Part shown: piece after piece, positions 4,806 through 32,080 of the stretch
How the letters are laid out: each line of letters opens with the position of its first letter
Numbering within the stretch: position 1 is the stretch's first letter
Position numbers and translations under genes: made by a program
Assembly (NCBI GenBank): GCA_038214755.1
Contig: JBBQRQ010000002.1
Coordinates: 64,001-128,000 of the forward strand
DNA length: 64,000 nt
From: Verrucomicrobiota bacterium
GTDB lineage: Bacteria > Verrucomicrobiota > Verrucomicrobiia > Limisphaerales > CANJXF01
Reading direction: 5' to 3'
Notes under the pieces: model-generated
The model's input: the letters and a program-made list of their open reading frames with translations, nothing else
Databases searched by the model: none
Told to the model about the DNA's origin: nothing

Positions 4806-5873
4806 ATGTTGGACAATGAAATCGTTGTTCCGCCCGAAATAAGCGCGCCGCCCGTTTCCCGTCCGCCGCCGCTTCCGCCGGTCATCAACCCCGATCCCAC
4901 GGCTGTTTTGGAAAAACTTCCGGCCAAGGTCAAAGCCATTCAAAACGAAATCTCCAAAGTCGTCGTCGGCCAGGACAACACGGTGGAGGCGATGCTCAAC
5001 GCGCTGTTTACGCGTGGCCATTGTTTGATCATCGGCGTTCCGGGACTGGCGAAAACTTTGCTCGTCCATGCGCTGGCGCGATTGCTCAATCTGCCGTTTT
5101 CGCGAATTCAATTTACGCCGGACCTGATGCCGTCGGACATCACCGGCACGGAAATTCTCGAAGAAGATTTGGCGACAGGCCGGCGGCAATTCGTCTTCAC
5201 GCGCGGACCGGTTTTCACGCAGGTTTTGCTGGCGGATGAAATCAATCGCACGCCGCCGAAAACGCAGGCCGCTTTGCTGGAAGCGATGCAGGAAAAAACA
5301 GTGACCGTCGCCGGGAAAAGTTATCGCCTCGAAGAACCATTCATCGTTCTTGCGACACAAAATCCAATTGAACAGGAAGGAACTTATCCATTGCCCGAAG
5401 CGCAGCTCGACCGATTTTTATTTGAGTTGCCGATTGAATATCCGACGGCCGCCGACGAGTTTCGCATCGTCGAGCAACATTCATTCACGCCGCTAACCAA
5501 GCTGGAGCCGATTCTTAGTCGCGAAGATATTTTGCAATGGCGTGAAGCGATTGCGCAAATTCCCGCCGCGCCGAATGTGATTCAATACGCGGTGAATCTT
5601 GCGCGCGCCACGCGGCCAAATGATCCGAAGTCGCCCGATTACATCAAGCGGTGGATTCGCTGGGGCGCAAGCCCGCGCGCCAGCCAATATCTCATCATCG
5701 CTGGTCGTGCCCGCGCCGCGATGCAAGGCCGATTCAACGTCGCGTGCGAAGATGTCGCCGCGCTCGCGCCCATTGTTTTCCGTCATCGTTTGATTCGCAG
5801 TTTTCAAGCGGACGCTGACGGAAAAACGAACGAAGAAATCATCACTAAACTTTTGCAGGACATTTCGCGCTAA
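4806..5873 (+). CDS. moxR: MoxR-family AAA+ ATPase
   Basis: GVPGLAKT, RIQFTPDLMPSD, LADEINR, ATQNPIEQEGTYPLPEAQLDRF. Confidence 0.95.
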   Translation: MLDNEIVVPPEISAPPVSRPPPLPPVINPDPTAVLEKLPAKVKAIQNEISKVVVGQDNTVEAMLNALFTRGHCLIIGVPGLAKTLLVHALARLLNLPFSRIQFTPDLMPSDITGTEILEEDLATGRRQFVFTRGPVFTQVLLADEINRTPPKTQAALLEAMQEKTVTVAGKSYRLEEPFIVLATQNPIEQEGTYPLPEAQLDRFLFELPIEYPTAADEFRIVEQHSFTPLTKLEPILSREDILQWREAIAQIPAAPNVIQYAVNLARATRPNDPKSPDYIKRWIRWGASPRASQYLIIAGRARAAMQGRFNVACEDVAALAPIVFRHRLIRSFQADADGKTNEEIITKLLQDISR

Positions 5874-5973
5874 AAACATTTTCCTGTGCAGATCGCGTCC
5901 AAACACCTGGCGAAGTGCGCCGTGAAAATCGAAGAAAAATCCCATTGCGAAATGAGAAGTGGGAAGGCGTGGT

Positions 5974-6297
5974 ATGAAGCCTTTTGACCTTTTAAAATTT
6001 CGAGAGTTCGTTACGGCGGAAAAAATCGAATGGCGGAAGCACGTTCTGCAAAAGCTGGCCGAACGCGCTATCCCCCAGCAATTCGTTCGCGATGTATTGC
6101 TGGCCGGCGAACGAATTCGGGACTACGCGGATGACAAACCTTTTCCGAGCGCGCTTTTTCTAGGGTATGTTTCCGGCAAGCCGCTTCATGTGGTGGCAGC
6201 TTGTGATGAAACGCAAGGACAGGTGTTCATCATTACGGCTTACGAACCGTCGCTCGAAATTTTTGAACCGGATTATAAAACAAAACGAAAATTATGA
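5974..6297 (+). CDS. DUF4258-domain protein (putative toxin)
   Basis: DDKPFPSALFLG..PLHVV..IITAYEP motif; stop overlaps next start. Confidence 0.8.
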   Translation: MKPFDLLKFREFVTAEKIEWRKHVLQKLAERAIPQQFVRDVLLAGERIRDYADDKPFPSALFLGYVSGKPLHVVAACDETQGQVFIITAYEPSLEIFEPDYKTKRKL

Positions 6298-6527
6298 ACG
6301 CGAAAGACAATCAATGCCCGCTGTGCGGCGGTAGGAAAACAAACGGCGAAACCACTTTCACGGCGGATTTAGGAAGCGGCGTGGTCGTCGTGCGGCGCGT
6401 CCGCGCCACGGTTTGCGCGCAATGCGGCGAAGAATGGATTGATGATGCGACCGCCCGCCGCCTGGAGCAGGTCGTCAACGAAGCGCGGTTAAAACACAGT
6501 GAAGTGGAAGTGACGGCCTTTGCATGA
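6294..6527 (+). CDS. YgiT-type zinc finger / MqsA-like antitoxin
   Basis: CPLCGG...VCAQCGEEW. Confidence 0.8.
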   Translation: MNAKDNQCPLCGGRKTNGETTFTADLGSGVVVVRRVRATVCAQCGEEWIDDATARRLEQVVNEARLKHSEVEVTAFA

Positions 6528-6680: not shown

Positions 6681-7598
6681 GTGCAAAACGCATCCAATCG
6701 AAGTCTGGCCGATCAATTTGATCCGCGCGCGCTCGCTGCGCTGGAAGGATTGGATTTCAAAGCTCGTTATGTGATGGAAGGTTTTTTGAGCGGCTTGCAC
6801 GAAAGTCCCTTTCACGGTTACAGCGTCGAGTTCAGCGATTATCGAAATTATCAACCGGGTGATGATCTGCGCCATTTGGATTGGAAACTTTATGCGCGCA
6901 CTGACCGCCTTTGCATCAAGCGCTACCTGCTGGAAACCAACGTGCAATTTTACGTCGTTTGCGACACGAGCGCGTCGATGGGCTATCGCGGTTCGCGCGC
7001 GTGGGAAACAAAACTTGGTTGCGCGCGGATAATTTCTGCGGCGATGACCTGGTTTCTGCTGAACCAAAACGACGCGGCGGGATTGATTGCGTTCGACGAA
7101 AAAAACGAAACGCGTTTTGTCCGTCCCTCTTCGCGTTCCACCCAATTTGGTTTGATGCTCCGCGAGATGGAAAAATTGCAACCCGCTGGCGGCGCGAGTC
7201 TCGTGAATTTGCTCACCCAAACCGCGCGTCTGGTGCATCGGCGCAGCGTGATTTTGTTTTTTTCCGATTTGCTGGAGCCGAGCGCGGAAGTCGAACTTTA
7301 TTTCAAACAGCTTCGTTTTCACGGCCATGAGTGTCTTGTGTTTCAAGTGCTCGATCCTGATGAAATTGATTTTCCGTTCACTGAATCGCATTTGTTCGAG
7401 GACATGGAGACCGGCGCGCGCCGACAGGTTTCGCCGGCGAACGCGCGGGGAAAATATCTGGAACGGTTCAACGGTTTCATGGACGACCACCGCAAATTTT
7501 TTCAAAGTTTGGAGATTCCTTTTTGCGTCATCCGCAACGACGAAAATCCGTGGCGCGCTTTAGCCCTGTTTCTTTCGGAACGAAAAAGGCTGAAATGA
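6681..7598 (+). CDS. DUF58 (vWA-like) protein
   Basis: EFSDYRNYQPGDDLRHLDWK, DTSASM; MoxR partner. Confidence 0.9.
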   Translation: MQNASNRSLADQFDPRALAALEGLDFKARYVMEGFLSGLHESPFHGYSVEFSDYRNYQPGDDLRHLDWKLYARTDRLCIKRYLLETNVQFYVVCDTSASMGYRGSRAWETKLGCARIISAAMTWFLLNQNDAAGLIAFDEKNETRFVRPSSRSTQFGLMLREMEKLQPAGGASLVNLLTQTARLVHRRSVILFFSDLLEPSAEVELYFKQLRFHGHECLVFQVLDPDEIDFPFTESHLFEDMETGARRQVSPANARGKYLERFNGFMDDHRKFFQSLEIPFCVIRNDENPWRALALFLSERKRLK

Positions 7599-15146: not shown

Positions 15147-16541
15147 TCAGTCTTCAGCGCGCTCGCCATGCGGCGCCATCTTCACGAGCTTCGGATCGAA
15201 TTGGCCGATCGTTTCCACCAAGTCGGATTGCGCAGCCATGACCGTATGAATGTCTTTGTAAACCATCGGCGCTTCGTCAAGGCCAGCGGAAATGAGCGTC
15301 ACTCCGCGTTCGCGCAGAAATTGATTCACTGCTTTCCAATTGAAAGTTTGCGACGCGCGAGTGCGGCTCATGACACGTCCCGCTCCATGCGAAGCAGAAT
15401 GCAAAGATTCAGCATTCCCTTTTCCACGAACAACAAATCCGGGGGTCGCCATTGAGCCAGGGATTATTCCCAACACACCCGTGCCCGCTGGCGTGGCACC
15501 TTTGCGATGCACCACGACCTCACGCTCTACGCCCTCGATAACGTGCTTTTCTTTCCAGGCAAAGTTGTGGTGGTTTTCCAGATCGAGCAAGACCTGCGCG
15601 CCGAGATTTTCCGCGATGTGTTTATGAATGCAGGCGTGATTCGCGGCGGCGTATTGTCCCATCAATTCCATCGCGTTCCAATACTCCTGCCCTTCCTGCG
15701 AATCGAGCGACAACCACGCGAGCCGCTTCAATTCGCTCGGCAAATCGGGAAACTGGCTGAACGCGATCTTGCTGTAGTAATCGCAGACCGACGCGCCTGT
15801 GCCGCGACTCCCGCTGTGTGACAGCAACGCCACATAAGTGCCCGGTTCCAATTCGTTGATTTTCGAGTGCGCCGTGAATAGACCAAACTCGACAAAATGA
15901 TTGCCGCTGCCGCTCGTGCCGAGTTGCGACCACGCGCGGTCTTTGTTTTGTTTCGTAATTGGACTGACCGACCAGTCCGCGTCGAGCACGCCGTGGTGGC
16001 GACGCTCCTTGAAATTCGCGCCGATGCCGAAGCGCGTCTCCGCTTCGATGGCGCGCGTGAGCCGGTCCTGCTTGCGTTCCAGATCGCGCAACGGCAGATC
16101 GAGCACCGTCATCTTCATGCGGCACGCGATGTCCACACCAACGGCGTAAGGAATCACCGCGTTCTCGGTGGCCAGCACGCCGCCGATGGGCAGGCCGTAG
16201 CCCACATGCGCGTCCGGCATGAGCGCGCCCGCCACCGAGATCGGCAACAGACACGCCTTTTCCATCTGCATCACCGCCTCATGTTCCAAACCTTCGCCCC
16301 ATTGCCGATACTTCACCGGCTCGGCGCGCGGCGGCGGTGGCGCATGGAGCAACGCCTTCGCAAGCTCGCCGCGCAATGCGTCATCCACGAACGCCGCCGG
16401 ATTGGCGACAATGGCCGCGACATCTTCGTGCAACCGCGACTTGTCGCCGCCGCCGAGGATAAACTTGCAAACAAAATCCGTCGCGCGCCGGGTGGCCTCG
16501 CCGAGCGGAACTCCCGTTCGTAAAAAATCTTTCGCATTCAT
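15147..16541 (-). CDS. rtcB: RtcB-family RNA ligase
   Basis: MPDAHVGYGLPIGG, VGVDIAC, SGNHFVE, NHHNFAW, HRKGAT, SHGAGR. Confidence 0.95.
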   Translation of the reverse strand: MNAKDFLRTGVPLGEATRRATDFVCKFILGGGDKSRLHEDVAAIVANPAAFVDDALRGELAKALLHAPPPPRAEPVKYRQWGEGLEHEAVMQMEKACLLPISVAGALMPDAHVGYGLPIGGVLATENAVIPYAVGVDIACRMKMTVLDLPLRDLERKQDRLTRAIEAETRFGIGANFKERRHHGVLDADWSVSPITKQNKDRAWSQLGTSGSGNHFVEFGLFTAHSKINELEPGTYVALLSHSGSRGTGASVCDYYSKIAFSQFPDLPSELKRLAWLSLDSQEGQEYWNAMELMGQYAAANHACIHKHIAENLGAQVLLDLENHHNFAWKEKHVIEGVEREVVVHRKGATPAGTGVLGIIPGSMATPGFVVRGKGNAESLHSASHGAGRVMSRTRASQTFNWKAVNQFLRERGVTLISAGLDEAPMVYKDIHTVMAAQSDLVETIGQFDPKLVKMAPHGERAED

Positions 16542-16575
16542 AACAAAATTGCTTCTCCCGGTTTGAGGCGGAAAC

Positions 16576-17868
16576 TCACTTTTGCGCCTTGCTCAACTCC
16601 GATTCGATCTCCTCGACCGTCGGCAGGCTGCCCTTCAGATTCTTCGGCAGGGATTCGACGAGCTTGGTCTGCCATTGCGCGACGCCGATGGGCTTCTTCA
16701 AATCGCGCAACGCATATTCCACCGTCAAGTTGTCGCGCTCCTTGCACAGCAACAGTCCGATAGACGGCTTGTCATCTGCGTGACGCAACTGATCGTCCAC
16801 GGCGGAGAGATAGAAATTCATTTTACCGGCGAACTCCGGCTCAAAGGCTTTCATCTTCAAATCGATCACCACGTAGCTGCGCAACCGCAGATGATAGAAC
16901 AACAGGTCGAGATAATAATCCTGCCCGCCAATTTCCAGGTGAAACTGCCGTCCCACGAACGCAAACCCGACGCCGAGCTGAAGCAGGAACTTCTGGATGT
17001 GATCCAGCAAACCCAATTCAAGGTCGCGCTCATGCGCGTCGGCGCGGAGCGTGAGGAAATCGAAGGTGTAAGGGTCTTTGAGCGTCTGCTCGGCCAGATC
17101 GGATTGCACCGGCGGCAACGTGCGCTGGAAGTTCGTAACCGCCTTGCCTTCGCGTTTGTGCAATTGCGCTTCGATGTGGTGCGTCAGCACCGCGCGTGAC
17201 CAGCCATGCTCGACGGCTTTGCGCGCATACCAAAGGCGGTCAGCGGCGGATTCGAGTTTTTGCAGCAACACAATGTTGTGACCCCACGGCAGCGAAGCCA
17301 TTGGTTCGGGCGGAGCGGCAAATTCTGTTGCAGGCTGTGACAGTTTTTGCGCCGGGAATTCTCTTACAGCTTGTGAGAGAATCTGCGGTTCGGATTCTCC
17401 AAGTCGCTGAGGAAGAATCGCCTCCTCCGGCAATTGTCGCACAAGCTGTGCGACAATTGCCGAACCCGACTGAGCAGCCGCCTTTTTCCCGCCGCCCGGT
17501 AATTGTCGCACAGGTTGTGCGACAATTGCGTTCGCCGGTGCATAACCCAGGAAGAACGCCCTCATGCGATAAAGATTCTTGCGAGAAAATCCTGCCATCT
17601 CGGGGAACTCCTCGGTCAAGTCATGCGAGAGGCGATCAAGCACGCGGTCGCCCCATTTGTGCGTTTTCTGTTGTTCAACGATGGCTCTGCCAATGTCCCA
17701 ATACAACGCGATCAGCTCGCGATTGACGGAAACCGCCGCGCGAAGTTGCGACGCGCGGACGCGCATCTTGAGGTCGGCGAGAATGGTGGCGTAATCGGCA
17801 GGCAATGCGCTGGACGCTTTGCCGCCGATGGCTTTTGCCAAGCTGATGGTTGATTTCTTTTTCGCCAT
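16576..17868 (-). CDS. YhcG/DUF1016 PD-(D/E)xK nuclease-domain protein
   Basis: LYWDIG, LPWGHN, KDPYTFDFL, DLLFYHLRLRSYVVIDLK, GKMNFYL. Confidence 0.9.
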   Translation of the reverse strand: MAKKKSTISLAKAIGGKASSALPADYATILADLKMRVRASQLRAAVSVNRELIALYWDIGRAIVEQQKTHKWGDRVLDRLSHDLTEEFPEMAGFSRKNLYRMRAFFLGYAPANAIVAQPVRQLPGGGKKAAAQSGSAIVAQLVRQLPEEAILPQRLGESEPQILSQAVREFPAQKLSQPATEFAAPPEPMASLPWGHNIVLLQKLESAADRLWYARKAVEHGWSRAVLTHHIEAQLHKREGKAVTNFQRTLPPVQSDLAEQTLKDPYTFDFLTLRADAHERDLELGLLDHIQKFLLQLGVGFAFVGRQFHLEIGGQDYYLDLLFYHLRLRSYVVIDLKMKAFEPEFAGKMNFYLSAVDDQLRHADDKPSIGLLLCKERDNLTVEYALRDLKKPIGVAQWQTKLVESLPKNLKGSLPTVEEIESELSKAQK

Positions 17869-17936
17869 ACCCAGAGTTAGCCGGTGATTCCTGGTTGATG
17901 ATGTTAAAGGTGGATTGGGTTGAAAAGCCTTTCCAA

Positions 17937-17990
17937 ACGGGCAGCTTCACCCAGCGGCACACCGAGAGGAATAAAATCTTTAGTGTTCAT
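17937..17990 (-). pseudogene. Orphan copy of rtcB 5' end (MNTKDFIPLGVPLGEAAR)
   Basis: Translates to a close match of the RtcB start MNAKDFLRTGVPLGEATR; frame closes at 17904. Confidence 0.85.
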
Positions 17991-18032
17991 GAAAAATGCG
18001 TTTCAACAGGAACAGTGCCACCACCACCAAGC

Positions 18033-19166
18033 TCACGCTATCGCTTGGCGCAATTCGCCCGGCGAAACAATTGAAAGTTTCAGCCTATCCTGAACCCGCT
18101 CATACGCCGGGCCGTTCAATGGGCTGACCACATAGTTTTTCCCTTTTGGATACTGTTCGCGAAACGCCGCCAGCCCGCGCGTTTCAAACGCATCCGCTTT
18201 CCATTTGCATTCGATGGCGTCAACGGCATCGCGGCCGCGCGGCACGACGAAGTCCACTTCGCGCTGCTGTTTGTCGCGCCAGAAATGAATCTTCGGCAGA
18301 TTGGCGGCGATAAGGGTGTCCAGCACGAGATGCTCCCACAACACGCCGCAATCCTCCGTTCGCAAATGATCCCAGCCGCGCGCGTGGCAGACCAACCCCG
18401 TGTCAAAACCGAACACCTTCGGCTGCGCCACGATCTCCCGCCGCCCGCCTGCTGAAAACGGACGCACCAAATGCGCCACATGCGTGATCTGATAAACCTC
18501 CAGCCAGTTCGTGACGGCAGGCCGGCTGATCTGGCTTTCGGCGGCCAGCTTCGTCACGTCCAGCATCCCGCCGCTTTGGCGCATCAACAATTCCAGCACG
18601 CGCAGAAAACCGGCGCGTTTCTCCAGCCGGAAAAGCTCCTGGACGTCGCGCGCGAAATAGGAATCCTGCCACTCGGCGTAGAATTCTGGATTGTGTTTCT
18701 CCGCGAGCAGCGCGGGCGGCAATCCCCCGCGCAACAAACGTTCCCGCAAATCCGTCACGCCGAACGCCGCCAATTCCTCGTGCAACACCGGCACCAGCTG
18801 CACCACCCGCTTGCGCCCCGTCAGGCTGTCGCGGAACTTTTGCGTGGCCGCGAGCGTGGACGAACCCGTCGCCAGGATTTTCAATTTGGGAAAATCATCC
18901 GCGCCAATCTTCAACAGCCGGCTTGGATCGGGAAGCTGATGCACCTCGTCGAACACCACCAGCCGCTTTTTCACGGAACGGAAAAAACTCTCCGGATCGC
19001 GCAGCCGTTCCGCCACGCTGGGCAGGTCGCAGTTGAGAAACTCCGCGTCGGGAAAGCTCTGCGCCAGCACCGTCTTGCCCGCGCGCCGCGGCCCGCTCAG
19101 CCAGACAATGGACGCCTGTTTCCACGCGGCGACGAGCCGTTCAGTCCAAAAAGGTCGGTCAATCAT
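18033..19166 (-). CDS. AAA_14 ATPase + DUF4143 protein
   Basis: GPRRAGKT, FDEVH, ATGSS, C-terminal REVDFV..IECKW nuclease-like motif. Confidence 0.9.
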   Translation of the reverse strand: MIDRPFWTERLVAAWKQASIVWLSGPRRAGKTVLAQSFPDAEFLNCDLPSVAERLRDPESFFRSVKKRLVVFDEVHQLPDPSRLLKIGADDFPKLKILATGSSTLAATQKFRDSLTGRKRVVQLVPVLHEELAAFGVTDLRERLLRGGLPPALLAEKHNPEFYAEWQDSYFARDVQELFRLEKRAGFLRVLELLMRQSGGMLDVTKLAAESQISRPAVTNWLEVYQITHVAHLVRPFSAGGRREIVAQPKVFGFDTGLVCHARGWDHLRTEDCGVLWEHLVLDTLIAANLPKIHFWRDKQQREVDFVVPRGRDAVDAIECKWKADAFETRGLAAFREQYPKGKNYVVSPLNGPAYERVQDRLKLSIVSPGELRQAIA

Positions 19167-19172
19167 GGCAGG

Positions 19173-19208
19173 CAGACTTTACGTTTAGACGGCTAAAAGT
19201 AAAGTCTG
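19173..19208. repeat. Palindrome immediately upstream of AAA-DUF4143 gene 1
   Basis: CAGACTTTACGTTTAG-acgg-CTAAAAGTAAAGTCTG, 16-bp arms with one mismatch. Confidence 0.8.
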
Positions 19209-19304
19209 GATTCGGCGCGCGGCGTTTACGCCGCTTCAACTCCCGGCTGTTGAGCGCCGCAGAGATGCCTCACGATGTCGTGCGGTGAAGCGGACTGAAC
19301 TTTG

Positions 19305-19533
19305 AATCCCAACGGGATTCCAGCGTTCAGCCAAAGGTTGCGACGAAGGAGCTATCTTGGGTTCGCATCCCAAAATATCCACAACCCCAACGCGGGTTGC
19401 ATCGTTTTCATTTATCCGTTTCTGATTCACGGGCGGACGCAACTCCTTCAGAGTTGAAATTCTTTTTTCACGTTTTCCCAGGGTAGCTCGTTCCTCGCAA
19501 CCTTGGGCTGACTGACGAAATCCCGTTGGGATT
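19305..19533. repeat. Dispersed palindromic MITE/REPIN-like element
   Basis: AATCCCAACGGGATT...AATCCCGTTGGGATT ends; internal GTAGCTCGTTCCTCGCAAC shared with the copy at 28325-28596. Confidence 0.8.
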
Positions 19534-19547
19534 TTCAAAAGCATGAG

Positions 19548-19643
19548 CCGTCGCGCGCCGCGTGGCTTCACCCGGCGGCACGTCTTGGCGCGCCGAAGTT
19601 GGACGCAAGGGGGGACGAGACGGAGAAAATCTTTGGCGTTCAT
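19548..19643 (-). pseudogene. Second orphan copy of rtcB 5' end
   Basis: MNAKDFLRL, then an ~30-nt insertion, then VPPGEATRRAT; CGGCGCGCGACGG identical to rtcB. Confidence 0.85.
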
Positions 19644-19717
19644 GTCAAACAAGGGTCGTCCTCCCATTCGAGAACTTGCGCGTTCGTCGCCCCCGTCATG
19701 TCAGCCCACGTTTTCAC
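19640..19717 (-). pseudogene. 25-codon mini-ORF, probable internally deleted remnant of the gene between RNA ligase and rtcB
   Basis: [29 protein letters not shown] overlap with the ligase stop and ATGA overlap with the rtcB' start. Confidence 0.55.
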
Positions 19718-20454
19718 AACCAAATGTCCGTTCCTGCGGCGAGCCAGTTCGGAACCATCTTCTGATGCTGCCAGTGTTCGCTTTGCTGCACCTTCTCCAC
19801 AAACTCCGGACGGACCAGTTTGGCGCGGCCTGTCACATAGCCGTCGGCCTCACTGCGAACGTAAAGTCCTTCCATCAAATTGTCGGTCTTGCCCGTGATT
19901 GGATTTTCAAAAGCGCTGTCAAACGCCGATGGCACGATGAGCGATTCCAGTTCGTCTGCCTTGGCGCGACCGCGATGAACGATAGGCACAGTATGAAGGC
20001 CGGTTCCGTCCAACATTCGCTGACGAGCGGCGAGGTCGAGAAACTGCCCGGCGTCCTTGTCGTAAATGTCGAACTCGAAAAAGTAATGCGGTAGCTTGCA
20101 ATAGTGGACGGAGTGCTTCGCGTAGAGCCATTCGCCGTAGAGGATAAACTGATTACCGAGCATTCCTTCGAGGACTGGGCGCTTCACCGAAGTCCACTGC
20201 TTGAAGAGATCATATTGCGGATGCATGCCCTCGGTAATTTCGTGACCACGGCATTGCAGCACCATGCGTCCACGGGACGTGAAATGAATTCCAACGTTCG
20301 TGCCATCAATCTTCTCCGCCACAATCAACGAAGGGTCCGCGATCAACCTCTCAGATTCTTTTTGGCCAAGATGTTTGTCGCCAGCAGTTCCCTTCGACCC
20401 GAACAGATGCGGTGTGCGTGGGTATTTGATAAAATCATCGCGGGTCGCTCCCAT
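19714..20454 (-). CDS. ATP-dependent RNA ligase-family protein (Rnl2-like nucleotidyltransferase)
   Basis: [15 protein letters not shown] (adenylated Lys), LYGEW, EFDI, EGLYVR, RAKLV motifs. Confidence 0.85.
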
Positions 20455-20520
20455 AGCAGTAATCGAGTTTGGTTGAATTAAGTTGGGAGAGCGAGCTTTG
20501 ACGCCCGCTCTCCCGTTGTT

Positions 20521-20591
20521 TCATTCGTTCAAGAACAGTTTCCACTCCGTGATGCCGTGGGCGTTGCGGAGGAGCGCCGTGACCGGCAGTT
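20521..20591 (-). pseudogene. Orphan copy of HNH gene 3' end (LPVTALLRNAHGITEWKLFLNE*)
   Basis: 61/71 nt identical by manual alignment to 21946-22016. Confidence 0.9.
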
Positions 20592-20619
20592 TCCCGCCTT
20601 GCGCGACCGTGGTACGTTT

Positions 20620-21867
20620 TCACAGACAAGACCACGGGAGCGCCGTCACCTTGTCGTGTATTTGCAGCGGCTGACGGCAGCGGCAAATGATGTAGGCGTG
20701 CTTCGCGTGTTTCGGATGTTCACCCAAGAACGTCAGGAGATGACGCGCGTCGGAGAGCGTCGGGTTCTCCGTCCATTTCACTTCAATCGGCGTCAGGCCG
20801 CCTTCGCGCTGGATGATGAAGTCCACTTCCGCGCCGTCATGGGTGCGGAGGTAATGCAACGTGCCCGTGCCAAGGTATTGCAGGCGTTTCCAAAGTTCGA
20901 CTCCCACCCATTGCTCGAAGAGCGGGCCGGGATTCGCCAGCACCACATCGGTGTTGGGCCGCAACCCGGCGGCGGCGTGGCGGATGCCGAGGTCGAAGAA
21001 CAGGAAGCGGTCGGTGGAGAGCAGATTTTTTCGCGGGCTGCCGGAATATGCTGGCAGACGGAAGCCGAGAAACATGTCTTCCAAAAGCTGGTAGTGGCTC
21101 TTGATGGTCGGCACGGACAGGCCTACGTCCTTGGAAATTTTGTGGTAGTTCACCATCTGCCCGGACTCGACGGCGGCGAAGCGCAGGAAGCGCACGAACG
21201 CGGGCCAGTCCTTCACCATCGCTTCGCGCCGCATTTCCTCCTCCAGATGAAGTTGCGTGTAGGCGTGCAACATCTCGGCGCGATGCGCTTCGTCAGCGGT
21301 GACGACGCCCGGGAGTTCGCCGAAGGCGAGTCGTGTGAGCAGGTCGGCGCGCGGAAATGGTTTCGTCGGGCGCTTCCCGTCCGGCCAGTCGAGCGGCAAC
21401 GGCGGCGGGGCGTCAAACTCAGCGGGCGATTCGGCAGGCGGGCGTTCAGTCAGCGTGAGCGGAAAAAGGCGGTGCAAAAAGCTGCGGCCCGGCAGAAGGT
21501 TCGCGCCGGTCTGCCGCAACTTGCGCGCGGAACTGCCGCAGAGGATGAACCGCCAGCGTTTCTTGTCTCCGTCGTAAAGATGCTGCACGGCGTCGAACAG
21601 CGCGGGCACGTTTTGCGCCTCGTCCACGAACACCCACGCGCCGCCTTCGCGCTGTCGCAGGCCACGGCAAAGTGCGATGAGGTCGTCCGGGTGGTTGAGA
21701 TATTGCGCCCGCACCTTCGGAATGGAGAGGTCAATGCGCGCGGCGTGCGGCGGCAGGAGATTCTGAATGAGGGTGGATTTGCCCGTCTGCCGCGCGCCGA
21801 ACACGATATGCACATACGGGGCGGCGAACTTCTTTCGCCAAAGGGATTCGGGCCAGCGGGTGAACAC
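20620..21867 (-). CDS. AAA_14 ATPase + DUF4143 protein (second, divergent paralog)
   Basis: GARQTGKS, VDEAQ, LCGSS, AEVDFII..IEVKW. Confidence 0.9.
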   Translation of the reverse strand: MFTRWPESLWRKKFAAPYVHIVFGARQTGKSTLIQNLLPPHAARIDLSIPKVRAQYLNHPDDLIALCRGLRQREGGAWVFVDEAQNVPALFDAVQHLYDGDKKRWRFILCGSSARKLRQTGANLLPGRSFLHRLFPLTLTERPPAESPAEFDAPPPLPLDWPDGKRPTKPFPRADLLTRLAFGELPGVVTADEAHRAEMLHAYTQLHLEEEMRREAMVKDWPAFVRFLRFAAVESGQMVNYHKISKDVGLSVPTIKSHYQLLEDMFLGFRLPAYSGSPRKNLLSTDRFLFFDLGIRHAAAGLRPNTDVVLANPGPLFEQWVGVELWKRLQYLGTGTLHYLRTHDGAEVDFIIQREGGLTPIEVKWTENPTLSDARHLLTFLGEHPKHAKHAYIICRCRQPLQIHDKVTALPWSCL

Positions 21868-21876
21868 GGCTTGGTT

Positions 21877-21922
21877 TTAATCGCCTGTTATTGAAAGTCA
21901 ACTTTCAATAACAGGCGTTTAA
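21877..21922. repeat. Palindrome immediately upstream of AAA-DUF4143 gene 2
   Basis: CGCCTGTTATTGAAAGT-ca-ACTTTCAATAACAGGCG perfect 17-bp arms, flanked by TTAA. Confidence 0.85.
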
Positions 21923-21945
21923 TGAAAACGCGATTCGCGCGCACC

Positions 21946-22203
21946 TCAGGCATTGAGGAACAGTTTCCACTCCGCGATGCCGTGCGCGTTTCGGATGAGC
22001 GCCGTCACCGGCAGTTCCTTCGGCGCGCGCGGAACGTTGAGCAATTTCAATACGGCTTCGTGCGGCAGGCGGTTGCCCTTTTTCGAGTTCACCGCTTTGT
22101 TCGCCCAGACGCAATTCTCCCACGCATCTTTTCCGCCGCGCGAACGTGGCAGGATATGATCGATACTGCCTTCCTCCGGCTTCAGAATTTTGCCGGTGTA
22201 TTG
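21946..22203 (-). pseudogene. HNH endonuclease, 5'-truncated
   Basis: QYTG..SIDHILPRSRGG..WENCV..NSKKGNR; sequence upstream of QYTG is tRNA-like rather than coding. Confidence 0.8.
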
Positions 22204-22224
22204 GACCAGCCTCCCGGAATTGAA

Positions 22225-22302
22225 TGGTGCGGCAACCGGGAGTTGCACCCGGACGAACGGAAGACTTGCAGGTCGCCGCCTGGGCTACTCGGCTAATAGG
22301 AC
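22225..22302 (-). pseudogene. Chimeric tRNA pseudogene: tRNA-Cys(GCA)-like 5' half fused to another tRNA 3' half
   Basis: GTCCTAT-TA-GCC GAGTAGCCCA GGC-G-GCGAC CTGCAA|GTCTTCC..CCGGG TGCAACT CCCGG TTGCCGC A CCA; acceptor strands do not pair. Confidence 0.65.
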
Positions 22303-22310
22303 ATCAATCG

Positions 22311-22515
22311 TTACTCTCGGAAGTAATGATCGCGCCGACTTCCGTCATAGCAGCCAGACTGCAATCAACAATTTTTGAAAGCTGCGTCCTGAGCCGCACG
22401 AACAAAGATCGTTGCGTCCGAGCTTTTCATGAAGCTCCTTAGTTCCATAAACGATGCGGGAACCTTTTTTCAAGCGAGTTTCCGATGGATACCCTTTGCG
22501 ACGTTTGCTGGTGAT
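22311..22515 (-). CDS. Small SEC-C metal-binding motif protein (recoded or pseudogene)
   Basis: [35 protein letters not shown]; +1 frame continues [21 protein letters not shown]; no ATG/GTG start; absent from the ORF track. Confidence 0.7.
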
Positions 22516-22771: not shown

Positions 22772-22848
22772 TGGTCAGGAAGCCGGCATTTGCACGCGGA
22801 CCGTCTCCTTCACAGGGAGAGATGCTGCTAATTACACCACGATCCTGA
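22772..22848 (-). tRNA. tRNA-His(GTG)-like, atypical or degenerate
   Basis: TCTCC-CTGTGAA-GGAGA anticodon arm; encoded CCA; bulged acceptor stem; imperfect T stem with TGCAAAT loop. Confidence 0.65.
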
Positions 22849-22854
22849 TTTGAG

Positions 22855-22938
22855 CGCGGAACGCAGAACGCGGAACGCGGAAAGAAAAACTCGCGCGCGA
22901 TTGATCTGATTTCCACGTTCCGCATTCCGAGTTCCGCG
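22855..22938. repeat. Inverted heptamer (GCGGAAC)n hairpin spacer
   Basis: About four CGCGGAA units mirrored by TTCCGCG-like units. Confidence 0.75.
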
Positions 22939-22945
22939 TTTGAAA

Positions 22946-23386: not shown

Positions 23387-23422
23387 GCTACAAATCTGAG
23401 TCGTGGCGACGGCGCGCTGCTC

Positions 23423-23493
23423 GTAGCCGCCGACGTGAGGAGGCGGATTCCGATCGGAAAACCACGAAACCGCCTCCTCACGTCAGCGGCTAC
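23423..23493. repeat. GTAG-type REP doublet
   Basis: GTAGCCGCCGACGTGAGGAGGCGG ... CCGCCTCCTCACGTCAGCGGCTAC. Confidence 0.8.
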
Positions 23494-23540
23494 AACTTAT
23501 GAAATTTTGATGGAGCGCGAACCAGATTTTTCCCGGAGAT

Positions 23541-30485: not shown

Positions 30486-30636
30486 AATTTTCCTTTGGTT
30501 AGAGACTCGGGAATTTTTCCCAAGCCATCCCGCGGAAGACGGGATTATTTTTGATGTTGTTGTGGCCGCCCGACTTCACACGAAGACAGATTTGAAGGCC
30601 GTTTTCCTTTCCTCAACGTGGCAAACCGCGCTCTGA

Positions 30637-30699
30637 AAAGGGTGTGAAACTTACCAAGAAAAGAGACCGTAGCAACTTCTATTTTCGACCGGTCGCACG
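30637..30699 (-). promoter_or_regulatory. Putative rpsB promoter (copy A)
   Basis: TTGCTA-16 nt-TAAGTT with extended TG; duplicated at 32018-32080. Confidence 0.55.
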
Positions 30700-30975
30700 C
30701 CATTTATATATCAGGCAAAAAAAATCAGGATGACCCTGAAAATTTCGGCTCAAGAGCGGCTGGACTTTCTTTTGGGGGGCAATTTGGTCACGCAAAAAAT
30801 CGCGAATGTCATTCCCGTTTTGGCGTAGCATTCACCCCATCCGGAAAATCTGAAACCGGTGCTGCTTGGTTCCAAAATCCGGCAAATCTTTTTTCGTATA
30901 GATTGAATCTTTGGGAATAAGCCATCCGGAAATGACAATTTGCTATTTAGGGAATGCGGGTGTCATGTAAGTCTT

Positions 30976-31350
30976 ATGTCAGAAAAAAACAAAAAACGGT
31001 TCGGAGTTTGGATGGATACGCACCACGCGACCATCGTAGGCTGCAACCCCACCGCCACTGAGTTCAACGTCCTCGGTCATGCCAAGAATCCAGGTGCCGG
31101 AGCCAATTCGAACGAGAATGCCTCGAACAATCTCGAAATAACTTTGGTTCGAAAGTATTTCAAAGAGATCGGCCGCCATCTGGTGAACGCGGAGGAGGTT
31201 CACCTCACCGGCACTGGCACAATCCAAGAGCAATTCAAGCACTACCTTGCGGAAACCCCCCAGTTCAAAAGGACGGTCGTTTCCGAAAGCACCTCCAACC
31301 AAATGAGCGATGAAAAGCTGGTTGAGTTCGTAAATAGCCATTTCAACTAG
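30976..31350 (+). CDS. Small eRF1/host-attachment-like protein
   Basis: FGVWMDTHHATIV..YFKEI..VHLTGTG pattern resembles bacterial eRF1-domain proteins. Confidence 0.55.
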   Translation: MSEKNKKRFGVWMDTHHATIVGCNPTATEFNVLGHAKNPGAGANSNENASNNLEITLVRKYFKEIGRHLVNAEEVHLTGTGTIQEQFKHYLAETPQFKRTVVSESTSNQMSDEKLVEFVNSHFN

Positions 31351-31649
31351 GAAGACGTCATCCAGTTTATGGCCTCAAAACACACCGCGCGACTCGCGTC
31401 ATCGCGGTAAAATACGAGGCAGTTGCGAAATCCGTTCACGGGCAACATTCTCAGCTTTGGCAATGCCGAGTTGCGCGTGCGAAAAATCATTCCGCATTCG
31501 GGATACCGGGAAATCTGGTGAAAGGTTTCATCAATTGCGCCAAGAACCTGTTCGGCAGCGGCGGGATCATCTTTTGCAATAAAAACGTAAATTTCCGGAA
31601 GATCATCCTCGATGACGGAGGCATGCCGTTCGATTCGTTTGTCAGCCAC
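31347..31649 (-). CDS. RelE/ParE-family toxin, C-terminus probably truncated
   Basis: DLPEIYVFIAKDDPAAA..YPECG..LVFYR; usual final strand and HGARD motif absent. Confidence 0.7.
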   Translation of the reverse strand: MADKRIERHASVIEDDLPEIYVFIAKDDPAAAEQVLGAIDETFHQISRYPECGMIFRTRNSALPKLRMLPVNGFRNCLVFYRDDASRAVCFEAINWMTSS

Positions 31650-31872
31650 GTTCTTGAGAGGCCTTCCGGACGCGCTCTTTCCAATCGGGCTCGAGCGGGG
31701 AAAAGGGGCCTTTGCAACGTTCTTCCAAAACCATTTCGAGTTCGGTTTGTTCGCAATCCGCGCGCGCCAACGCGAGCAAGTATTCTTCTTTCGAGCGAAA
31801 ACCGCCCGCTTTGAAGCGGTTCTCGATTTGCGCATCCAGAGTGTCTGGCAATGAAACGGTGACGTTGCTCAT
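31642..31872 (-). CDS. RHH antitoxin (ParD-like)
   Basis: VTVSLPDTL..GGFRSKEEYL; overlaps the toxin start. Confidence 0.75.
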   Translation of the reverse strand: MSNVTVSLPDTLDAQIENRFKAGGFRSKEEYLLALARADCEQTELEMVLEERCKGPFSPLEPDWKERVRKASQERG

Positions 31873-32017
31873 ATTGAAAAAGTCTGTTTGAATTCTTCGA
31901 TGACGTGCAGTGCGCTCACGGATTTAATTATGCACAAAGAATTCTTTCGGGCAAGCAACCGCATGGGGGTTGTAATTCAACAATTCTGACGTTTGCGCGA
32001 AATCGCGGAAGACCCGT

Positions 32018-32080
32018 AAAGGGTTTGGAACTTACCAAAGAAAAAGTCCAGGGCAACTTCTATTTTCGCCCAAACGCACG
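32018..32080 (-). promoter_or_regulatory. Diverged duplicate of rpsB promoter region (copy B), upstream of the TA pair
   Basis: 50/63 nt ungapped identity to 30637-30699 by manual alignment. Confidence 0.7.

Follow-up and report, generated by a model that had tools for sequence, protein, structure and literature searches.

The gene ends around an RNA-repair locus

The DNA analysed here, called the window throughout, is a stretch of 64,000 nt from a Verrucomicrobiota bacterium (assembly GCA_038214755.1, contig JBBQRQ010000002.1; G000:C2:64001-128000, where G000 is the assembly of 5.1 Mb in 175 contigs). It holds an RNA-repair locus in which three accessory genes are each enclosed by copies of the end of a host gene. 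On the minus strand the order is the 3′ part of an HNH gene, an AAA-DUF4143 gene, a second HNH 3′ end (copy B), an RNA ligase gene, an rtcB start (copy C), a REP-like (repetitive extragenic palindrome) repeat, another AAA-DUF4143 gene, a further rtcB start (copy D), a DUF1016 gene and rtcB, whose own start is copy E. Pfam matches at the locus were RtcB, DUF1016_N with YhcG_C, two sets of AAA_14 with DUF4143, RNA ligase and HNH, and the coordinates are listed in Table 1. The initial annotation had reported three occurrences of the rtcB 5′ end and two of the HNH 3′ end, all of which were recovered at the same positions. It had also seen no integrase or transposase nearby, which agrees with the absence of such Pfam families from the 53 open reading frames (ORFs) scanned in the window (0/53) and from 107 cargo genes scanned across the genome (0/107, of which 49 had no match to any family).

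Logan contigs of the one sequencing run that contains this DNA, possibly its source, showed 0 differences to the window at an even depth of 22-27; copies E and D were spanned by one contig, and C and B by another. Because exact-match contigs span the paired copies and the copies are too unlike each other, mis-assembly, which the initial annotation had listed as a possible refutation, is excluded.

Table 1. Features of the window around the RNA-repair locus and at two further sites.
Feature	Position	Strand	Remarks
rtcB, intact, 464 aa	15147..16541	-	Pfam RtcB; nt 1-~50 are a foreign allele (copy E); intact ATG at 16541
Cargo 1: DUF1016/YhcG, 430 aa	16576..17868	-	cassette ~16542-17936; missing in congener G007
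Remnant D: displaced native rtcB start, 54 nt	17937..17990	-	from alignment to L032 (G007)
Cargo 2: AAA_14+DUF4143, 377 aa	18033..19166	-	same position in G007, 94% aa identity
REP-like palindromic multicopy element	19300..19540	.	between remnant C and cargo 2; many copies in G000; gap in the G007 alignment
Remnant C: older displaced rtcB start	19548..19643	-	32-nt insert at 19585-19616; G007 counterpart reaches ~nt 94
RNA ligase gene, unbracketed	19714..20454	-	HNH and rtcB flank it in metagenome loci L312 and L322 as well
Remnant B: displaced HNH 3′ end	20521..20613	-	followed by a hairpin as after intact HNH in G007
Cargo 3: AAA_14+DUF4143, 415 aa, palindrome upstream	20620..21867	-	not found after HNH in G003 or G007
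HNH 3′ part (copy A), 5′-truncated, ~85 codons	21946..22204	-	HNH of congeners is 214-231 aa
tRNA-Gly-like piece fused to truncated HNH	22205..22258	-	deletion of a tRNA array present in G007
Stranded DUF58 start	5868..5910	+	resembles the G007 allele; DUF4258 pair at ~5974-6527 next; intact native-like DUF58 start at 6681
Non-coding rpsB-leader duplicate (50/63)	30637..32080	-	brackets a ParE-type pair and a 120-aa ORF

The working rtcB starts with a foreign allele

Copies D and E are identical at 36 of 54 positions and differ in eight synonymous and five non-synonymous codons, while copy C (19643-19548) matches the rtcB start at 48 of 64 positions once its 32-nt insert is removed. In G007, a genome of the same genus, the same AAA-DUF4143 gene (94% aa identity) and the same spacer lead directly into an intact rtcB, with no DUF1016 gene. 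As the spacer that precedes rtcB in G007 leads into copy D in the window, copy D is the old rtcB start. The working gene has 14-15 mismatches to four congeners over nt 1-51, a stretch with only 0-2 differences between G002 and the other three, and it carries 13 private sites in nt 1-51 versus 7 in the next 609 (nt 52-660). The divergent tract ends where the remnant ends and does not extend into the gene body. Judged by these alignments, the first ~50 nt of the working rtcB are foreign and the stranded 54-nt copy is native.

Other members of the genus carry rtcB remnants of their own, with other cargo, in G003 (a Fic gene) and G031, and HNH adjoins rtcB in G028 and G058. Remnants of rtcB end at ~nt 54, 67 and 94, and so the junctions differ at one and the same gene. 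Outside the genus they are rare, being found at 1 of 53 loci having at least 1 kb upstream. G007 (L032:2616-3821) and G003 (L033:463-1668) share a Fic gene upstream of rtcB, located on opposite sides of their remnants. The rtcB of G007 (L032:5267-6763) has two in-frame repeat-like inserts, ~35 codons in total, in an otherwise conserved protein.

Three further sites in the window

The two HNH 3′ ends (21946-22016 and 20521-20591) are identical at 61 of 72 positions, or at 77 of 93 with gaps. Copy B is the old HNH end, since the hairpin that follows HNH in G007 stands after B. The HNH gene at 21946 is not intact: only ~254 nt of it match the full gene of congeners, and these are fused to a tRNA-Gly-like piece. 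The alignment indicates that the HNH gene later lost its 5′ part via a deletion into a tRNA array. A relic of this array, a tRNA-Gly piece and tRNA-His, lies upstream of HNH-rtcB (window 22205-22258 and 22772-22847); eight tRNA genes are retained in G007 (L032:3-908), and four stand beside a TROVE gene in G028.

The same signature had been claimed at 5886/6681 and 30637/32018, and it was upheld at the first of these. There the DUF58 match is weak alone (24/37), and the duplicate is counted as real because congener G002 has an empty site. The working DUF58 copy is native-like, and the stranded start upstream of the cargo looks foreign and resembles G007 (a weak comparison over 24-37 nt only). 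The arrangement is, over the same 24-37 nt only, a circular permutation of the order in G007, where the cassette of the DUF58 site is present without a duplicate. At 30637/32018 the duplicated sequence is a non-coding leader ~150 nt upstream of rpsB, found in congeners in single copies, within short loci. A joint from 30592 to 32018 was considered as an empty site and was not counted: it occurs in one contig at a depth of 4.5, with the intervening sequence unread, and may come from another organism.

Gene-end duplicates across the genome

The first, last and middle 90 nt of each gene were aligned to its 5-kb flank at a score of at least 38, using our own 4369 gene calls in G000 and removing tandem paralogues. 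Downstream copies of gene 3′ ends were found in 60 of 2939 cases, versus 16/2883 for the wrong polarity and 7/2939 for mid-gene pieces. An upstream copy accompanied 32 of 2883 gene 5′ ends (controls: wrong polarity, 17/2939; mid-gene, 14/2883), and matches in random far DNA numbered 4 and 5 of 3592. The filtered set comprises 82 pairs, with 51 reaching the stop codon, 24 the start codon and seven near them; the 75 terminal pairs represent 73 distinct intervals; in 71 of these pairs the copies enclose a called gene. Duplicates have a median length of 110 nt (40-621, continuous), a median identity of 85% and a gap of 827 nt. Repeats 95-99% identical mark the transketolase, C103 and serS sites as holding young cassettes. 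Doubtful candidates were kept in this set, namely tandem PEP-CTERM/choice-of-anchor arrays, pieces of toxin-antitoxin (TA) paralogues, four pairs with no called gene between them and two double counts. No motif shared by the 75 junctions emerged from a 5-mer count and inspection by eye.

Many of the hosts (46 scanned) are core genes, among them gatA, purB, accC, transketolase, glyA, ilvD, thrS, serS, pheT, nadA, apt and deoC. In a density comparison between genomes, based on small samples, G000 had 13 right-polarity hits per 1358 ends in 60 chunks (wrong polarity, 2/1358), and G001 (2/506), G055 (2/230) and G051 (1/246) gave weak hits. The excess of flanking duplicates extends to TA homologues outside the seed set, with flank-to-flank repeats at 15/73 versus 14/250 random long genes. 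Gene-end duplicates around cassettes are a genome-wide pattern, beyond chance.

Empty sites in relatives and the allelic nature of the copies

Sites without the G000 cassette were found in relatives at rtcB (G007), DUF58 (G002), deoC (G003, G004), purB (G001), pheT (G007) and glyA (G001, G003, G005, G007); the comparison that the initial annotation had proposed for rtcB operons returned an empty site in G007. For 13 genes chosen for their G000 remnant, remnants were also present at 11 of the 49 congener loci whose flank is 1 kb or longer. At deoC the cargo is 94-95% identical among G000, G005 and G007 versus 85-87% for the gene body, and the junction lies at nt 752 in G000 and nt 833 in G005 and G007 (remnant starts overall: 752, 798, 829, 833). 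Cargo more alike than the gene, together with differing junctions, points to sideways spread with fresh joints. At glyA, as at rtcB, the working end is foreign, the remnant is mostly native and the tract is co-extensive with the stranded copy.

The synonymous bias suggested by the initial annotation was also found. The pooled ratio of non-synonymous to synonymous differences (pN/pS) over the 75 pairs is 0.21, while duplication followed by decay would give at least 0.5, and 28 of the 58 events with at least eight differences beat the decay null at p<0.05. These p-values are overstated, because the null leaves out transition bias and saturation; events with 42:6, 43:7 and 18:2 are hard to explain by either, and the rtcB comparison is model-free. 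Long remnants have pN/pS of 0.04-0.14 and no stop codons. Sites at which the intact copy is the odd one are synonymous in 83 cases versus 18 that are not, and sites at which the remnant is odd are mostly synonymous at fdh (16/4), ilvD (14/4, a relative's locus with its own remnant being left out) and accC (7/2). By their substitution pattern, the duplicates are alleles rather than decayed identical copies, in line with the earlier proposal that the cassettes brought along an allelic piece of their target gene. That the incoming piece restored the host gene fits rtcB and glyA; it does not fit DUF58, where the working copy is native-like, nor HNH, which is no longer whole.

Cargo of the cassettes

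The 107 cargo genes come from 40 of the 66 regions and comprise 38 of TA type, 20 others (ORF6N, CAP12 TIR, PEP-CTERM, HTH) and 49 without annotation; DUF433, DUF5615, DUF4258, DUF2283, DUF4926 and DUF6883 were presumed to be TA-associated. The DUF1016 protein of the window has its nearest relatives in Verrucomicrobiota. Across the genome, DUF1016 or AAA-DUF4143 is the cargo of only three cassettes, and homologues without brackets also occur in G000 (AAA-DUF4143, 3/5; DUF1016, 2/3). Of 70 DUF1016 loci elsewhere, 13 are bracketed, two of them by long paralogue repeats, and 57 are not (controls: 2/70 inverted, 3/300 cross-locus). The earlier suggestion that PD-(D/E)xK nucleases of the cargo drive the insertions is not borne out by these counts.

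Palindromes stand just before both AAA-DUF4143 starts (window ~19178-19207 and 21886-21909), with similar ones at other G000 homologues, and are possibly autoregulatory operators; in G024 the first of them lies in reverse orientation upstream of rtcB. The DUF1016 coding sequence contains three palindromic repeats of 25-34 nt within a low-complexity insert (17352-17529). A CAP12/Pycsar TIR-domain gene (G000:C42:20444-21256, L077) is among the cassettes stacked behind thrS. A second DprA-family gene (G000:C8:21292-21804) lies in an accessory stretch between deoC and an aldehyde dehydrogenase gene, a stretch missing in G003 and G004.

Elsewhere in the window, heptamer-type inverted repeats occur at 22865-22940 and 23420-23505, the second having many copies genome- and genus-wide. 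An intergenic segment upstream of the truncated HNH (~22370-22430) has a short reading of 13 residues that we take to be SEC-C-like. Two pairs of diverged 76-nt repeats (677-752/48483-48558 and 19440-19515/28499-28574) are long-distance copies of dispersed elements.

Discussion

The geometry of the cassettes, the empty sites, the allelic origin of the copies, the variable junctions and the lack of a shared attachment (att) motif are established. We consider insertion-duplication by host recombination the best explanation of them, with a probability of roughly 0.55. A fragment of 0.5-5 kb from a related species, carrying one or more accessory genes and the end of an adjacent conserved gene, would have its ends joined illegitimately into a non-replicating circle, which would insert through a single crossover in the shared gene end (40-600 nt). 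What remains would be a complete host gene, in many cases a hybrid, next to the cargo and a stranded gene end that has diverged. A cassette bracketed in this way could loop out and move again, and cassettes stack at the same gene end. ComEC and DprA may serve uptake and a Ku-type system end joining, and the crossover could be RecA-dependent or RecA-independent. We propose that the scars sit at gene ends through selection, as only terminal pieces would leave a whole gene. The circle, the single crossover and the enzymes are what we infer from the established features, and of these the circle is likely.

A close laboratory parallel exists in Escherichia coli, where linear DNA became ligated and entered the chromosome through one crossover; 56 of the 60 clones had lacZ-end duplications of 109-950 bp (Amarir-Bouhram et al., 2011, PMC3240628). 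Insertion-duplication there was RecA-dependent, occurred at 4e-9 per cell and was ten times commoner than homology-facilitated illegitimate recombination (HFIR). Common to both systems is non-replicating DNA with a piece of a gene end yielding a partial duplication of variable length; theirs was a laboratory substrate with identical homology, whereas here ~70 natural sites have copies 65-100% alike. The H47 island of E. coli is described as recombining independently of RecA and of 16 site-specific recombinases, with exchange at identity blocks of 11-20 bp inside imperfect direct repeats of 148/144 bp (Azpiroz and Lavina, 2017, PMC5426353). It shares with the cassettes the imperfect direct repeats, the lack of a recombinase of its own and the empty sites in other strains. 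It differs in being one island whose mobility was demonstrated and whose fixed repeat is not described, in the portion of the report drawn on here, as allelic gene ends; the cassettes are putatively mobile.

A duplicate beside a complete gene is the signature of one crossover with a circle bearing a single terminal piece of that gene. Insertion-duplication predicts variable lengths, no core motif, terminal pieces only and hybrid copies, and both of its outcomes, a foreign working end and a foreign-looking remnant, occur. In a polarity test pooling 24 events, which expects remnant-odd sites inside and intact-odd sites outside, sites at which the remnant is odd lay nearer the inner boundary (0.42 vs 0.52, raw p=0.0012). 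Several observations weigh against insertion-duplication. The polarity p-value rises to 0.02-0.03 after end trimming and to 0.06-0.24 with synonymous sites alone, and the sites at which the intact copy is odd lie at the background position (0.52); as this test is not robust, the circle is rated as no more than likely. In 12 of 58 events pN/pS is at least 0.5. In a comparison covering 76 of the 80 metagenome loci, the rtcB 5′ allele closest to copy E matches it at 41/51, and no donor was found among these loci. Assembled contigs of the one run showed no circle or excision joint for the rtcB cassettes. No Rad52_Rad22-family match was present in G000, a search that did not cover RecT/ERF, LigD or RecA. 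The genome encodes Ku, ComEC, two DprA proteins and MutL, and Ku is present in eight of nine genomes of the genus; ComEC and DprA, however, are near-universal (10-11 of 14 controls), and the presence of these genes is permissive, not diagnostic. An identity of 67% over 54 nt between copies D and E is too low for ordinary RecA. This is the hardest point, but H47 implies that a route at short blocks exists.

The strongest competitor, which we hold to be possible and clearly less probable, is one-ended capture of linear DNA, like HFIR or break repair, in which the donor's gene piece would anneal on one side of a break in the gene and the other end would be joined by microhomology, with no circle. 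It accords with rtcB and glyA, where the remnant is mostly native, the working end foreign and the switch near the inner boundary, with the G007 DUF58-site cassette that has no duplicate, and with the competence genes. It does not readily account for sites at which the stranded copy is the foreign one, such as DUF58, or fdh, ilvD and accC with their mostly synonymous remnant-odd sites, and HFIR, in the results reported for E. coli, usually deletes recipient DNA instead of duplicating it (PMC3240628). An HFIR product was accordingly rejected for the tested sites, which are duplicated rather than deleted without duplication; the DUF58 site of G007 is a possible exception.

A long target-site duplication at insertion, with neutral decay of one copy, is improbable. 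Remnants that differ mainly non-synonymously (apt, 2/14; pheT in G007, 1/8) and the 12 events of high pN/pS are what it would give, and decay may describe how remnants age. It does not account for their origin: the copy of rtcB that departs from the congeners is the working one, which refutes it for rtcB/DUF1016, and the intact-odd sites (83:18) and the stop-free long remnants of low pN/pS speak against it elsewhere. A transposon with target-site duplication fails on the foreign allele in the working rtcB, the pooled pN/pS and the absence of a transposase family match.

Integrase-type islands or satellites that have decayed, are moved in trans and regenerate the target gene from their att sites would have the same geometry, and five tyrosine-recombinase matches lie elsewhere in the genome. 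We regard them as slightly less probable still, given ~70 unrelated targets, no integrase or transposase match in the 107 cargo genes scanned (49 unannotated), no shared core and junctions that vary at one gene (rtcB, deoC); an integrase-mediated island was rejected on the same grounds, with no recombinase on the element. Homing by a cargo nuclease, comparable to the mobile ORFs of fungal mitochondria, which carry in a replacement for the gene end, would suit the PD-(D/E)xK-type families of the three window cassettes, the one HNH and one ATPase-DUF234 gene in other cargo and the bracketed DUF1016 loci elsewhere, and is the least probable of all, since the cargo is largely of TA type (38/107) with few DNase families, most homologues are unbracketed and the bracketed DUF1016 loci, whose targets are unannotated, gave no link to rtcB.

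Several known elements resemble the cassettes in part. The e14 element at icd is an integrase-type island that regenerates its target gene and leaves the displaced fragment. Islands of this type share with the cassettes a whole target gene on one side and a displaced fragment on the other; they differ in that the cassettes have no integrase, no fixed core and dozens of unrelated targets. Minimal mobile elements exchange via both flanking genes, and a duplicated gene end is unnecessary for them. Those of Neisseria, as described (PMC1797815), are likewise small accessory cassettes between conserved genes that depend on host recombination. Unconventional circularizable structures (UCSs), including a pcp-mediated cfr(C) circle, have recombinase-free cargo between direct repeats, possibly of gene sequence, and their circles are reported to re-insert at the homologous gene (PMC7843796, PMC10770853). 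Their repeats, in the account given, are long and near-identical and enclose resistance genes (PMC7843796), whereas the cassettes have short diverged ends of core genes around TA or defence cargo, and only 2 of 75 pairs reach at least 97% identity. The cassettes fit the recombinase-free circularisable class of H47 and UCSs on two counts, having repeats without a recombinase and empty sites in relatives. Our literature search, of narrow coverage with few subscription journals, returned these precedents but no genome-wide description.

What is added here is scale, direct comparisons of empty and filled sites and the removal of the cargo-nuclease idea. More tentatively, and with considerable doubt, the pattern may reflect a general route of capture, encoded by the host and needing no integrase, that accepts 15-30% divergence over only 40-100 nt, docks at core-gene ends and re-mobilises cassettes between species; such a route might be a main source of chromosomal TA and defence islets in some uncultured lineages and might swap the termini of essential proteins between species. 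The entry of small accessory genes such as chromosomal TA pairs without mobile-element machinery has so far been poorly explained. Among the testable gene 3′ ends of this genome, about one in 55 bears a readable scar that records target, junction and donor allele, which allows the insertion route to be counted from genome to genome and tested in the laboratory. Short 'gene fragments' beside TA pairs are then insertion records, not annotation noise, and housekeeping genes such as rtcB and glyA can have foreign codons at their start or end.

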